From: a virus
Length of the DNA stretch: 36,552 nucleotides
Virus genome (UHGV): UHGV-0029170
Direction: 5' to 3' (one strand)
The translations under genes were made by a program, and so were the position numbers. Below the pieces are notes generated by a model. It saw nothing but the letters and a program-made list of their open reading frames with translations. It was not told the DNA's origin and made no database searches. Shown one piece after another: positions 4,496 to 23,131 of this stretch; positions within the stretch are counted from its first letter, which is position 1, and the number at the start of each line of letters is the position of its first letter.

Positions 4496-4966
4496 ATGAC
4501 AATGCATGTTGTAACAGGTGTTATCCGAAAGGAACCGTATGTCAAGGAAGGCAGCAACAATAACGGGCTGTGGAAAATGTACGCCGTAGACCTGTCGGAG
4601 CGAATGAAGATCCGCAATCGTGATGGCCAGGACGAAACGGTTTACACGAACTACCGCGCCGTTTTCTTTGCCAAAGAAAACATGATTAAGTGGTACGACG
4701 AAGCGCTGCAAATTGATAAGGTGATCAGCGTCACCTGTCGGACGCTTCAGATCGTGAACCGCGAGCACAACGGCACAATTTACAGCCACAATGAAATGAT
4801 TATGCCGCAACTAGAATTCAGCCAGCGCGAACCTGCGCAAAGCGGCGGAGGCAATCAACAATCCGGATGGGGTCAGCCTCAGCAACCGAAGCCGCAGCAA
4901 GCGCCTAAACCGCAAAACAGCGGCGGGAATCCGGGGATGGATTTCGATGATGATATCCCGTTCTAA
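4496..4966 (+). CDS. ssb: SSB-like single-stranded DNA-binding protein with host-SSB-like C-terminal tail
   Basis: C-terminus ...SGWGQPQQPKPQQAPKPQNSGGNPGMDFDDDIPF ends in the E. coli SSB tip DFDDDIPF after a Gly/Gln/Pro-rich linker; N-terminal ~110 aa compatible with a divergent OB fold. Confidence 0.6.
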   Translation: MTMHVVTGVIRKEPYVKEGSNNNGLWKMYAVDLSERMKIRNRDGQDETVYTNYRAVFFAKENMIKWYDEALQIDKVISVTCRTLQIVNREHNGTIYSHNEMIMPQLEFSQREPAQSGGGNQQSGWGQPQQPKPQQAPKPQNSGGNPGMDFDDDIPF

Positions 4967-4977
4967 CTTGACAACTA

Positions 4978-5003
4978 AAGGAGCCGAAAGGCTCCTTTTT
5001 TTT
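4978..5003 (+). terminator. Rho-independent terminator after ssb
   Basis: GGAGCC-GAAA-GGCTCC hairpin (4980-4995) followed by T8 (4996-5003). Confidence 0.75.
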
Positions 5004-5059
5004 CCTGTTTATTGATGCTATTATCTTCGTTACTCAACCAACCAAAGAGGACTAAAAAC

Positions 5060-7246
5060 ATGGCACTATACAGAGAAGGCAAAGCGGCTATGGCCGCCGA
5101 CGGAACCGTTACCGGGACTGGCACAAAATGGCAATCATCGCTTTCGCTGATTCGCCCAGGCGCGACGATTGTGTTTTTATCGTCACCAATTCAAATGGCC
5201 GTCGTAAACAAGGTGGTCAGCGACACTGAAATTAAAGCAATTACCACAAGCAGCGCTGTCGTAGAGTCTACTGACTACGCGATCCTATTAAGTGACTCTC
5301 TGACCGTTGACGGACTGGCGCAAGATGTTGCGGAAACTTTGCGCTACTATCAGTCGCAAGAAACAGTAATTGCGGATGCGGTCGAGTTCTTTAAGGAGTT
5401 CGATTTCGAATCGCTACAAAATCTTGCCAACCAAATCAAGGCAGACTCCGAAGCTGCTGAATCAAGCGCCGAGGCTGCGGCGACGTCTGAAAGTAATGCT
5501 AAAACTTCAGAGACTAAAGCCAAAGAGTCTGAAAATGCGGCAAAAAGTTCAGAGGTAGCAGCGGAGACTGCAAGAGACCAAGTACAGCAGATCATCAATG
5601 ATGCTGGCGAGCAGTCAACGCTGGTTGCGCTTGCTTCACATACGTTGCCAGGAGCATCAAAAGTCGCTCTTGCTGACGGATTTCTGAACGACTACATAAA
5701 GGAAAAAACTTATGAGTCACTTGGTGCTAAATTCGATGGCATAAACGATGATACTGCTGCGATCCAGGCAGGAAATGAGCTTGTAAAGCAGGGTTATTTA
5801 GTAAAGGCAGTAACGCCAAACGGTAGGGCGAGGATTACTTCACAAGTAACATTTTATGCTGGTTCTGGAGCTGTTGACATGGGTACGGCTTATCTGAAGC
5901 CTGATAGGAATTTGATGACTACTGGCTATGCGGCAAGGGTTATTGGAGACAATACGAGAACATATAATCTTGGCAGCAGATTGATAATCAATATGATTGG
6001 CCCATATGGTGAAATAGGTGAAAAGCCACCTACTGACACCAGTAGTATTACTACGCAACTATGCGGCCTAAATATCGACCCAGGTACTAATACACAGGTA
6101 TCTAATTTGGATATTAGTTGGAAGATCTTTGGATTCATGAAAAACGTAAGAATTGGGAGCAAGTCTGTATATTTGATTCGCGCATGGGGGCCAATGCATA
6201 GCAAAGCATGGGTTTGCAATGTTGAGTTTGACTGTCAAAATGACGCTGGAGAAAATATTAACTTCTTCGGCGGCACTGGTTCAGATTGCAGGAACTCTGA
6301 AAAAACTGCGGCTGATATCTATTCAACATCTGCAGGTCATTTTTTAGGACTGAATCTTATTGGTTATAGTCAGGATTATAATGATGTTGATTTAGACATC
6401 AATGGTGGGTACGTTTATAAATTAGCTGGTCAATTTGAAAATAACTCATTACAGCCTTATGTAAAAATGTCATATACTGTCGGTAAGCGACACCCAACTG
6501 TAATACTACAAACAGTTAATATTGATGGTGGTAATGACCAGGCGCAGGAGGCGGGAAACACTGGACGTCCTGCATGGTTTAAGATTGGTAATGGATGTAT
6601 TTTTCATGCTGACGGTGGAACATGGGGTAAGTATGATAAAATGCACAACACAAAGTTATTTGATGTAAGCGCTAATGGGCCTATTGCACTTAGCGTAAAA
6701 AATATTTACTTCGATACTTATGACGGTGTTGATAGCATAGAATGGGGAGCGCACGGAAACCCGATTAGGAATTATGATTTTAGCGATCACTCATTATCTG
6801 GTTGGAAAACAGAATATACATACCCATCAGGTGGTACACCAGTACCTCCGACGATAACGTATGACGATTCTAAGCCAATAGGAAAAGCAGTTAAAATTTC
6901 ATCGTCAGTTAGCAACGGTGGAACAACGACGCTATTCGGTCAGAAGATACCAGTAACTCCTGGAGGCATACTTTACATGTCCACAAATCTTTATTGGGAA
7001 AATATAGTCACAACAAACGGAACAGCATATTTCGGATATACGTTCTATGATGCATTTGGTGATGAAATAACGCACAACAACATAGGTGTAAACTTGAATT
7101 TGCAGCCAGCAAACGCTACAGCACCAGTTTTGTGCTCTGGTAGGGTGCGCATTCCTTCTGGTGCGGCATTTGTGCATGTTGGAATTCGCCATTATCAGAT
7201 GAGCGGAGATGTATGGATGGGTAAGATGAATGCATTTGTTCAATGA
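5060..7246 (+). CDS. Lateral tail fibre / tailspike with pectate-lyase-like (depolymerase-type) central domain; mosaic
   Basis: ATG at 5060 with AGAGGA RBS (ORF track start 5012 lacks RBS); Ala/Ser/Glu-rich fibre-like stretch; motif [17 protein letters not shown] typical of beta-helix pectate-lyase-like tailspikes; sequence after ~5.65 kb is markedly AT-rich by eye. Confidence 0.7.
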
Positions 7247-7419
7247 TTAATAATCATCAATGGATTTTCAGATAAGAGGACGAATAAATGGCATACGCAA
7301 CAATTCATACCAACTACGGCCTGCAATGGTTGGCGCAGGCCGAAACAACAGGAGTTACCTAAGAAAACATCGACATTGTTGATACATGACATATAAAGCA
7401 TCTCCAGACAACATAAGAA

Positions 7420-7447
7420 AAAGGGCCGTTCGGCCCTTTTATTTTGT
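7420..7447 (+). terminator. Rho-independent terminator for plus-strand tail fibre unit
   Basis: GGGCC-GTTC-GGCCC hairpin (7423-7436) followed by TTTTATTTTG. Confidence 0.65.
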
Positions 7448-12582: not shown

Positions 12583-13335
12583 TTACCGTCCGCTTTTCAA
12601 GGTTGCAGTAGCGCAACCGCCAAAATCCAAAGCCTCATTTCCGAATCGCAATCTGCACGACGAAACAAGGCCACCGCAAACATCCTGGCTGGGATCATCA
12701 ACCCTATTCCCGTATTTGTCAAAGTATCCGTTTTGCCCGTTGTAACTGCATCCCTTCCCTGTTTTGTACCAGCCGCGTTGCGCCCAATAACAAACGGTTT
12801 GAGTCTGGCGGGCAGGAATCATCAAGCCATCCATATCGAAGACGGATGTTAGCTCAAACGTGGCCTTCTGCGGGTCAACCTGTTTAGGTCTTTCGATATA
12901 GTAAACGAACCGCCGAAAATCGCCATCAGCGACGCTACCATCTTCTTTCAGCAAATCCTTGACCAAAACCCATACCGTAACTTTCGCTTGCATGAGGCCG
13001 TTGTAGGCGCGAATAAGAGCACTCGCTTGCGCATCAATATTGCTAACCGTCAGCGTTGGCTTTTCTACCGTGCCGTCACTTGACATTGCGATACCACCAA
13101 TCCCGAACGGGCGCGGGCCGTATTGCTCGCCGCGAAACGTGATCGCCTTCGGTGTCAGCGTTCCACCGTTAACCGCTGCCAAAAGTTCTTCGGTTGAGTA
13201 GGCGATATTCTCGTTGTGGAATCGGTAGACCTGCCCGCCGAACTTCGTGGAGTCAATATCAATCAGCGTTAAGATCTCGCCGGGGAACAGCTTTTGAAGG
13301 CAGTTCGCAAACTCTTTTGAAACATTAGTTGTCAT
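12583..13335 (-). CDS. Minor tail protein (lambda L-like)
   Basis: 250-aa ORF with RBS GAGGAGG; C-terminal Cys cluster (CYWAQRGW...CSYNG...CGGLVSSCRLRFG) as in gpL family. Confidence 0.75.
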   Translation of the reverse strand: MTTNVSKEFANCLQKLFPGEILTLIDIDSTKFGGQVYRFHNENIAYSTEELLAAVNGGTLTPKAITFRGEQYGPRPFGIGGIAMSSDGTVEKPTLTVSNIDAQASALIRAYNGLMQAKVTVWVLVKDLLKEDGSVADGDFRRFVYYIERPKQVDPQKATFELTSVFDMDGLMIPARQTQTVCYWAQRGWYKTGKGCSYNGQNGYFDKYGNRVDDPSQDVCGGLVSSCRLRFGNEALDFGGCATATLKSGR

Positions 13336-13372
13336 CGTAATTCCTCCTCTTGTCGACTCCAGATCATATGTT

Positions 13373-13400
13373 AAAAAAAAGCGCCCGTAAAGGGCGCTTT
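13373..13400 (-). terminator. Terminator-like hairpin + U8 between M-like and L-like genes (minus strand)
   Basis: Minus strand: AAAGCGCCC-TTTAC-GGGCGCTTT followed by T8; lies in the 71-nt gap inside the tail operon. Confidence 0.5.
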
Positions 13401-13406
13401 GTGCTA

Positions 13407-13748
13407 TCAGGCAGAAGTGAACCGTTCGGCAAACTCCGCCGTTACCTCATACACCCCGCCACCCATCGGCGCGAGATTCACAGAGTCTGCCGTTACGACG
13501 AATACGCCCATTCTTCCATCTGGCGCCCTCCAGATAAAGGGCTTCGTCACGTGATTCTGGCAAAAATCATAAACCGCCTCCCAATCCCTCCCACCATAAA
13601 CGATCGGAACCGTCCGTCGCTTTGTGTTGATGCCACTCGATGCAGTCTGGATGTATCCGTTACCGAAACTAACCGCTCGCACGTTGTTGGATACGGCGAC
13701 TTTCGCCGCCCCTCCTTGAATTTGAGTACACCAGGAAAAAGAATCCAC
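13407..13748 (-). CDS. Minor tail protein (lambda M-like)
   Basis: 113-aa ORF directly downstream of tape measure gene (4-nt overlap), size and position as gpM. Confidence 0.7.
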   Translation of the reverse strand: MDSFSWCTQIQGGAAKVAVSNNVRAVSFGNGYIQTASSGINTKRRTVPIVYGGRDWEAVYDFCQNHVTKPFIWRAPDGRMGVFVVTADSVNLAPMGGGVYEVTAEFAERFTSA

Positions 13749-21326: not shown

Positions 21327-21407
21327 GTGAAACTCCTGTTTGTGTGTTTTGACTTAACGAGATGAAGAATAGCACGAATTGCTAAACGGTCAAAGGTTTT
21401 TTTAACG

Positions 21408-21436
21408 CATGAAAAAGGGGCCGAAGCCCCTATTTT
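21408..21436 (-). terminator. Hairpin + U-tract after decoration-protein gene
   Basis: GGGGC-TTCG-GCCCC (21417-21430) with T-runs on both sides. Confidence 0.55.
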
Positions 21437-22000: not shown

Positions 22001-23131
22001 TTAGTTACGGAATTTGGCTTGCGGGTCGATGATGTTAGAACCATCGAGTTTAGGCGCGCCTTTTTTGTCTTCCTGCTCACCATCTTCTTTTTTGGCGAAG
22101 ACTTTAGAGCGATTGCTTGCCATCTTATCAGAATTGGCGATAAAGTCAAAAGAAGCGTCGATGTACGAATCTTCTTTGTCTGACAGGTCGCGTCCATCCG
22201 CTTCTTTGATGTAAGCAACTTTCATCGCTTTAACGTCCAGGCCGTCGCACTTGATGCCAGCGGCGGAGACGATCGCAACAACTTTCTGCTTCGCGTCTTC
22301 GTCAGCTTTGATTTTGGCAACGCGTGCGGCCACTTCGTCTTCAATGCCATCAACTTTGGTTTGAAGCGCGTCGCGCTCTGCGGTGATGCTCGTTACCTGA
22401 CTGGTTGCGGTTGCGATCTGTGCATCCAGTTTTGCGATATGTGCGCCTACGTTATCGGCTACTTCGACGTCTACGCCGTCAATTTTGATAATCATCGTTT
22501 TAGCTCCTTTGTGGTTTGAGTCGTCATCATAGGGAAATTCTTGCTCACTATCAAGATTTAATTTCGCAATTCCTGCGCGGCCACGAAAAACAAGCGCCAC
22601 ATGGTTAACGCGAATCTTCGTTTGCACCGCATCAAAGCGAACCCAATCAGAGACGGAATCATTTTTCAGTTCTTCGAAGTTTTCCGGTAGTTCTTCATCG
22701 AAGTAGTATTCGCCAGTCGCGTTGTTGCCCCAGCCTTTTTTGTCGATATCAATCGAGGTGTACCCAACGGACAATTCAGCCGCTACGCGCTGTTTCGCCT
22801 GCTCGATCGACTCCCCATCGTAAATCATCACCGGAACCAGAACCCCGATCCCGTCCTCTTTGCCAGCGCCGGAACAGGAGCCGACCACTAGCCCTTTTGC
22901 GTTTTTGGCATTGACCATCTTGTGACCCAAAGTGATTGGCTTGCCCTGGTATGACGCCAGCGATTCAGCGTCGAACACTTCGGATCGCGGGCGAAACTCA
23001 ACGCGCGGGCCGTTCGGAGTCTGGTAGGTCTGTGCGCCGATACGCGCAACGATCGGGGTATCGACCAGAAAGCCGTTCTCATCAAAGCGGGCCTTCACCT
23101 TTACCGTGTCGAATCTTTGAACTCTTTTCAT
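22001..23131 (-). CDS. Prohead protease / scaffolding protein, putative
   Basis: 376 aa; N-terminal globular part then charged Ala/Lys/Asp/Glu-rich coiled-coil region (...AKIKADEDAKQKVV...) typical of scaffolds. Confidence 0.5.
   Translation of the reverse strand: MKRVQRFDTVKVKARFDENGFLVDTPIVARIGAQTYQTPNGPRVEFRPRSEVFDAESLASYQGKPITLGHKMVNAKNAKGLVVGSCSGAGKEDGIGVLVPVMIYDGESIEQAKQRVAAELSVGYTSIDIDKKGWGNNATGEYYFDEELPENFEELKNDSVSDWVRFDAVQTKIRVNHVALVFRGRAGIAKLNLDSEQEFPYDDDSNHKGAKTMIIKIDGVDVEVADNVGAHIAKLDAQIATATSQVTSITAERDALQTKVDGIEDEVAARVAKIKADEDAKQKVVAIVSAAGIKCDGLDVKAMKVAYIKEADGRDLSDKEDSYIDASFDFIANSDKMASNRSKVFAKKEDGEQEDKKGAPKLDGSNIIDPQAKFRN

Follow-up and report, generated by a model that had tools for sequence, protein, structure and literature searches.

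The junction between the M-like and L-like tail genes

The stretch of DNA analysed here, referred to as the window, is the 36,552 nt virus genome UHGV-0029170, which belongs to a T1-like phage of the genus Webervirus, family Drexlerviridae; the region discussed below is 96-97% identical to Klebsiella phages of that genus. According to Pfam, its tail genes follow the usual order of tube, chaperones, tape measure, M, L, K, I and J. The earlier note on this DNA had placed a hairpin between the M-like and L-like genes, before the ribosome binding site of the latter, and both the Pfam matches and the position of the Shine-Dalgarno sequence agree with that placement. On the minus strand the junction reads ...GCC-TGA-TAGCAC-AAAGCGCCC-TTTAC-GGGCGCTTT-TTTTT-AACATATGATCTGGAGTCGACAAGAGGAGGAATTACG-ATG, in which everything 3' of TTTTT can be read more finely as AACA-TATGAT-CTGGAGTC-GACAAG-AGGAGG-AATTACG-ATG. 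In the order of transcription, the features are:

13407..13748, minus strand: M-like minor tail gene (lambda M family), from the ORF list; Pfam PF05939, E = 1.7e-19; TGA stop at 13409-13407
13401..13407, minus strand: ATAGCAC heptamer, the first A of which is also the final base of the TGA; half of the T1-like 21 nt repeat, standing here as an orphan
13400..13373, minus strand: hairpin plus U8 tract, AAAGCGCCC-TTTAC-GGGCGCTTT, with a perfect 9 bp stem
13378..13400, minus strand: the terminator-like hairpin itself; perfect 9 bp stem with 6 G-C pairs, 5 nt loop TTTAC
13400-13392, 13391-13387 and 13386-13378, minus strand: 5' arm, loop and 3' arm of the hairpin, respectively
13380-13373, minus strand: U8 tract (eight Ts)
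13386..13391, minus strand: -35-like hexamer TTTACG (4/6) from a promoter scan, consisting of the five loop bases plus the base that opens the 3' arm
13363..13368, minus strand: -10-like hexamer TATGAT (5/6) from the same scan, 17 nt past the -35-like hexamer and 9 nt past the stem
13355..13400, minus strand: near-invariant 46 nt block of the Webervirus alignment (hairpin, T8, 4 nt, TATGATCTGGAGTC)
13348-13343, minus strand: AGGAGG, the Shine-Dalgarno sequence for the L-like gene, whose ATG lies 7 nt further 3'
12583..13335, minus strand: L-like minor tail gene (lambda L family), from the ORF list; Pfam PF05100, E = 5.3e-40; ATG at 13335-13333

Both gene boundaries differ among relatives in small ways. 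Compared with all 80 related loci, the window carries TGA in place of GGA at 13409, making its M-like protein one codon shorter. An ATG inside the TATGAT hexamer (13365-13333 region, minus strand) was considered as a small ORF or an alternative start of L, and was rejected as coding because its frame is not conserved and it is not preceded by a Shine-Dalgarno sequence. In the window this ATG is not in the L frame; the ORF it opens has 11 codons and overlaps the L start through ATGA. The KLPN1 clade (locus L130, 494), by comparison, has it in frame with L, and there it is annotated as the start of that gene; hence the annotated start of L is inconsistent among weberviruses.

Structure of the hairpin and similar motifs in the window

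The hairpin starts 6 nt 3' of the M-like stop codon, and the unit formed with the U8 tract ends 37 nt 5' of the L-like ATG. It had previously been described as a perfect GC-rich hairpin with an 8-U tract on the minus strand, and the sequence and the predicted RNA fold show both coordinates and description to be exact; three of the eight Ts are paired with AAA at the base of the stem. In isolation the hairpin has a folding energy of -14.9 kcal/mol, and ViennaRNA predicts exactly the 9 bp stem inside a 101 nt context. Its orientation is that of the late genes, being on the strand from which they are transcribed and downstream of the M-like TGA.

The window was searched for a strict form of this motif, defined as a perfect stem of at least 7 bp with at least five G-C pairs, a loop of 3-8 nt and at least six Ts in nine. 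Ten sites were found, whereas 60 dinucleotide shuffles gave 0.2 on average and never more than 3, an enrichment of around 50-fold in the window. The site at the M/L junction exceeds the other nine in G-C pairs, whilst its stem length and T count equal the highest among the ten. Taken as a whole, the 101 nt context has an unremarkable free energy (z = -1.68), which is what might be expected of an inverted repeat that had arisen by chance and had no function. Against this stand the expectation of just 0.2 strict motifs per shuffled window and the comparative data presented below, in which the hairpin is found at the same position throughout the family and is nearly invariant in Webervirus; these comparisons refute a chance origin, which we regard as practically excluded.

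Three other possibilities for the site itself were rejected. A bidirectional terminator is not favoured by the plus strand, on which the hairpin is followed by TTTGTGCT, a poor U-tract, and an attenuator or alternative structure is not favoured by the 101 nt fold, in which no pairing competes with the arms of the terminator. The sole match in an Rfam scan of 13200-13550 was STnc50 on the opposite strand, which at 23 bits against a gathering threshold of 55 (E = 0.1) is noise.

Comparable hairpins are distributed over the late region, where they match the annotated terminators of T1 in position, most being found directly past the stop codons of late modules:

17463-17444, minus strand: hairpin after the tube gene
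16754-16737, minus strand: hairpin after the chaperone genes
11248-11224, minus strand: hairpin after the I-like gene
7474 and 7440 (7474-7419), minus strand: hairpins after the J-like gene
20382-20360 and 21431, minus strand: hairpins after the capsid genes
27465-27448, minus strand: hairpin before the small terminase gene

Two perfect 9 bp hairpins, at 7419-7440 and 4977-4998, might terminate transcription both ways, as they are flanked by A- and T-tracts on both sides. The first lies where the late minus-strand genes meet the plus-strand ORF 5012-7246; the second is between this ORF and another on the plus strand, 4496-4966.

Conservation across the Drexlerviridae

Within Webervirus, the 46 nt block running from the hairpin to GGAGTC was aligned in 40 distinct sequences, comprising 39 weberviruses and the window. 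Only four of the 46 columns vary, each of them in just one or two sequences; in the same alignment, 83 of 100 third codon positions of the M-like gene vary (83%). Among forty IMG/VR weberviruses, AAAGCGCCCTTTACGGGTGCTTTTTTTTGGCCTATGATCTGGAGTC is essentially unchanged, and the T8 run is invariant in 80 webervirus loci. The window has two peculiarities of its own: the C at 13383 makes a G-C pair where the 80 related loci have a T, and hence a G.U wobble, and the four bases preceding the -10-like hexamer (13369-13372) are AACA rather than the GGCC of all 80 related loci. An exact-match search of IMG/VR found no identical copy of the hairpin variant in the window.

The hairpin is not confined to this genus. 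A strict hairpin followed by a T-run was found at 32 of 33 distinct junctions from other Drexlerviridae, sampled from Tunavirus, Tlsvirus, Warwickvirus, Vilniusvirus and unclassified lineages, in each case around 0-11 nt from the M stop codon; random 70 nt windows taken from the same loci as a control yielded it once in 621. The G-C cores of the stems differ between lineages, there being at least ten (GCGCCC, GGCCCGC, GCCGCC, GCCGC, GCCTCC, GCCCGC, GCCAGC and others), each of which pairs perfectly or with G.U. This complete pairing is partly so by construction, the hairpins having been chosen by a hairpin finder, and it is the positional enrichment that represents the real test. A covariation count on a MAFFT alignment was dropped in favour of the tally by lineage because stem and loop lengths differ between lineages, leaving the MAFFT columns out of register.

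On these comparative grounds, the M/L hairpin is maintained by selection, and its designation as terminator-like in the earlier note is borne out insofar as it is a structure of terminator type on the late strand. The only sampled Drexlerviridae lineage to have no M/L hairpin is represented by locus L107 (IMGVR_UViG_3300045988_050399, around 1170-1200), the spacer of which is about 25 nt long. Hence the terminator is not indispensable at this junction.

The same junction in T1, TLS and lambda

A terminator at this position has been annotated before. The T1 RefSeq record (NC_005833) has a 'rho-independent transcriptional termination site' at 22793..22816, between gp37, an M homologue resembling N15 gp17, and gp36, an L homologue resembling N15 gp18. 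In the 2024 re-annotation of TLS, terminator T46 is listed at 22718..22742 (Table S1; PMC11447400), which is the M/L junction of the TLS genome (locus L109). Both are known as computational annotations, as is the site in the window, and all three have the family, junction and orientation in common. In each, the hairpin is rich in G-C and is accompanied by A- and U-tracts, and the loop carries a TTG-type hexamer with a -10-like hexamer 17 nt further on. The stem sequences are unlike one another, being AAAAGCCCGC/GCGGGTTTTT in T1, GCCGC/GCGGC in TLS and GCGCCC/GGGCGC in the window, and the hairpin is 11 nt from the stop codon in T1 but 6 nt from it in the window.

The comparison with lambda is different. 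The genes are homologous and lie in the same H-M-L-K-I-J order, but in lambda the M and L genes share one nucleotide, leaving neither an intergenic spacer nor a terminator. When compared with intrinsic terminators of E. coli and lambda, such as lambda tR2, the window site has the same G-C stem of 7-10 bp, short loop, seven or eight Us and upstream A-tract; unlike tR2, it is embedded in an essential late gene cluster, where it follows a stop codon by 6 nt and coincides in part with a promoter-like sequence. The earlier note had started from the premise that these two genes are normally cotranscribed in lambda-like tail operons, thereby implying that a terminator between them would be unusual. 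Given the overlapping genes of lambda and the terminators of the T1-like phages, this premise is true for lambda and not for the Drexlerviridae, in which a terminator at the M/L junction is the rule. As the same signal has previously been annotated at the same junction in T1 and TLS, there is nothing unusual about this intrinsic terminator at a module boundary, whose counterparts are already on record in the annotations of the family's type phages. Two webervirus GenBank records that were checked have no terminator annotated at the M/L junction, and the site merits such an annotation in webervirus records.

A promoter-like sequence overlapping the terminator

The hairpin shares its loop with a promoter-like sequence that was absent from the earlier note. 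TTTACG-17-TATGAT (13391-13363) has nine of the 12 bases of the sigma70 consensus, the -35 hexamer being the weak one, and between five and ten of 500 shuffles score equally to this pair. Transcription from it would be predicted to start at around 13358-13355. In most of the other lineages with a spacer of at least 35 nt, the loop contains the start of a TTG-type hexamer, at +0 to +2, and this hexamer is separated from the -10 hexamer by 17 nt in most of these and by 16-18 nt in two. The -10 hexamers of other lineages are TATAAT, TACAAT, TAGAAT, TATGAT or TATCAT. In 14 of the 15 lineages with a long spacer, a -10-like hexamer with at least five of six consensus bases lies approximately 10-15 nt past the G-C core; the scripted count was 13 of 15, compared with 1.6 expected from shuffles, with L104 added once the end of its core had been corrected. 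The offset of the -10 hexamer moves with the length of the stem, such that the spacing is kept.

Hence a candidate promoter of sigma70 type, conserved as judged from sequence comparison, appears to overlap the terminator, and the embedded hexamers are probably active as such. Some other constraint might conceivably account for the fact that weberviruses keep both the loop and the CTGGAGTC following the -10 hexamer invariant. The window has the same arrangement of hairpin and promoter-like sequence at two further places, with TTGTGC-16-CATAAT following the tube gene and TACAAT following the I-like gene.

The late region of T1 was described in 2004 as consisting of 'transcriptons', units flanked by terminators and having RpoD promoters (cited in PMC11447400); the authors of the TLS analysis, applying stricter promoter criteria, did not confirm them (PMC11447400). 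The M/L junction resembles such a unit in that a terminator and, immediately past it, a sigma70-like promoter sequence are placed at a module boundary, and differs in that the support for it here is comparative only, consisting of the fixed 17 nt spacing and the conserved -10 hexamer. These two properties favour the old and disputed transcripton idea at this junction.

A stronger form of this idea is that the terminator is an efficient full stop, with L, K and I being expressed solely from the embedded promoter and each transcripton functioning independently, with almost no read-through. Whilst the strong hairpin and U8 tract, with the perfect stem of the window, the conserved promoter geometry and the agreement with the T1 model are all consistent with this, the promoter is weak, with nine of 12 matches, and the placement of the hairpin relative to both flanking genes, considered below, argues for read-through. 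We therefore consider a full stop unlikely. A further speculation, which we likewise think doubtful, is that terminator and promoter constitute a single integrated unit across the Drexlerviridae, at which a polymerase that has let go of its RNA on the U-tract would already be positioned on a promoter and could re-initiate locally through post-termination recycling.

Relation to the 21 nt direct repeat

The earlier note had also pointed out that the hairpin directly follows ATAGCAC, the same heptamer as in an element it called Box A. This corresponds to a 21 nt direct repeat, aaATAGCACnnnTTGnTAAAA, described for TLS, T1, Rtp and Rogue1, the role of which was given as unknown (PMC11447400). The junction shares with this repeat (DR1-18 of TLS) the ATAGCAC sequence, its adjacency to a stop codon and its orientation along the direction of transcription; however, the TTGnTAAAA half three nt past the core is missing, the heptamer being followed by aaaGCGCCCTTT. 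The heptamer occurs 16 times in the window, where 3.6 copies would be expected, and 12 of these belong to full repeats:

35255, 34831, 34169, 33602, 32990, 32448, 31268, 30479 and 29621, minus strand: full repeats, ATAGCAC-N3-TTGNTA
1166, 2628 and 21369, plus strand: full repeats, ATAGCAC-N3-TTGNTA

The four remaining orphans, the copy at 13407 among them, are close in number to the chance expectation. Furthermore, 29 of 40 IMG/VR webervirus loci read ATAATCA or ATAATCG at this position, with single loci having ATAACAC or ATAATCAC, and T1 has TAACGCC. Hence, with the second half of the repeat absent and the first not conserved, the heptamer at 13407 is probably a coincidence: its identity to that of Box A stands, but a connection with that element is not supported.

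It might nevertheless be argued that the site is a variant of the repeat in which the hairpin has taken the place of the TTGnTAAAA half. The heptamer is strongly over-represented in the window, ATAGCAC overlaps the M stop codon in KL3 and some Tunavirus relatives too, and the -10 hexamer lies 32 nt past the heptamer here, compared with 31 nt (or, in one case, 30 nt) in full repeats. Weighing against this are the missing half, the chance-level number of orphans and the sequences found in most weberviruses and in T1; those weberviruses with ATAATCA keep both the hairpin and the -10 hexamer unchanged. Such a variant is accordingly quite improbable.

The full repeats have several properties of their own. 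In 11 of the 12, a -10-like hexamer is found 30 or 31 nt past the heptamer (31 nt in ten), and TTGNTA is separated from it by 21-22 nt, not 17. These repeats resemble promoters of non-canonical geometry. Among elements such as those at 29621-29560, 33602-33540 and 34169-34110 on the minus strand, some have an inverted repeat, GATCGGGG...CCCCATCG, around the -10-like hexamer, whilst others have CCCGGTC-N5-GATCGGG just 5' of it; a CATCGA(A/C)AAC motif is shared 3' of the -10 hexamer. The plus-strand repeat at 21369-21389, in the region of the head genes, opposes the late genes and lies beside the hairpin at 21416-21431, which is potentially bidirectional. This arrangement may point to antisense transcription, and has an analogue in TLS, where the opposite-strand repeat DR7 is next to T35.

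Termination, read-through and expression of the downstream genes

We propose, with a probability of roughly 0.7 and on the basis of sequence comparison, that the M/L site is a leaky Rho-independent terminator for host RNA polymerase, which would also act as a 3' stabiliser and be accompanied by re-initiation downstream. As the counterpart of the T1 gp37/gp36 terminator and of TLS T46, it would end the module of the tape measure and M-like genes and open that of L, K and I. RNA polymerase would pause at the U8 tract, allowing the 9 bp hairpin to form, and some transcripts would be released with 3' ends predicted at around 13375-13373. The released RNA would retain the hairpin at its 3' end, where it may shield the transcript from 3'-to-5' exonucleases. 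Termination would probably be partial, since a ribosome terminating at the M-like stop codon could hinder the folding of the hairpin, and L, K and I would be expressed from read-through RNA, probably with a contribution from the weak sigma70-type promoter inside the terminator. A literature search returned no usable Term-seq, RNA-seq or 3'- or 5'-end mapping data for T1-like or Webervirus phages.

The earlier note had suggested either a partial terminator, which might set the stoichiometry of tail tip proteins, or a 3' hairpin that stabilises the mRNA; a partial terminator and a stabiliser are both plausible. Two indirect arguments point to leakiness. In the lineages L045/NBD2, L047/LF82-40 and L127, the hairpin is kept although only 15-18 nt separate it from the start of L; as there is no room for a promoter in such a spacer, L would need read-through RNA in these three lineages, which favours leaky termination over a full stop. 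Secondly, lambda tR2 in E. coli is almost fully repressed in vivo by a ribosome terminating at a stop codon close to it, reaching full efficiency only at distances above approximately 30 bp (PMC4824070). By analogy, a hairpin 6 nt past a stop codon is likely to terminate incompletely.

The same proximity to the stop codon, through the low termination it predicts, is equally compatible with a hairpin that functions mainly as a stabiliser of mRNA 3' ends or a barrier to processing, being mostly read through and protecting the tape-measure and M-like RNA after endonucleolytic cleavage. The conservation of structure despite variation in sequence also suits such a role. However, the T-run that uniformly follows the stem is specific to termination, and would be needless for a hairpin required for stability; those hairpins that tie for the best scores in the strict scan likewise closely follow stop codons. 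Stabilisation as the main function therefore seems improbable.

It is also conceivable that the late terminators are overridden by a phage antitermination system, in the manner of lambda Q, which would confine the relevance of the hairpin to the early phase of infection or to stray transcription. The presence of about eight terminator-like hairpins within approximately 20 kb of essential late genes would be readily accommodated by such a system. Yet the string 'antitermin' is absent from the TLS paper (PMC11447400), no antiterminator is annotated in the T1 record, and the conserved downstream -10 hexamers would be superfluous, all of which makes antitermination very improbable.

Implications for late transcription in T1-like phages

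The analysis confirms that this webervirus shares the late-gene layout of T1, with terminators at module boundaries. This has little weight as a discovery; what is new is modest: sequence comparison supports a promoter embedded in the terminator, and the position of the hairpin is conserved across the family. Were the integrated terminator and promoter unit to prove real, the long late cluster would be cut into mRNAs that decay separately, whilst the transcriptional flux was retained. The M/L site would also be a clean case in which to see how the closeness of a stop codon sets the level of read-through within a compact operon of a phage.
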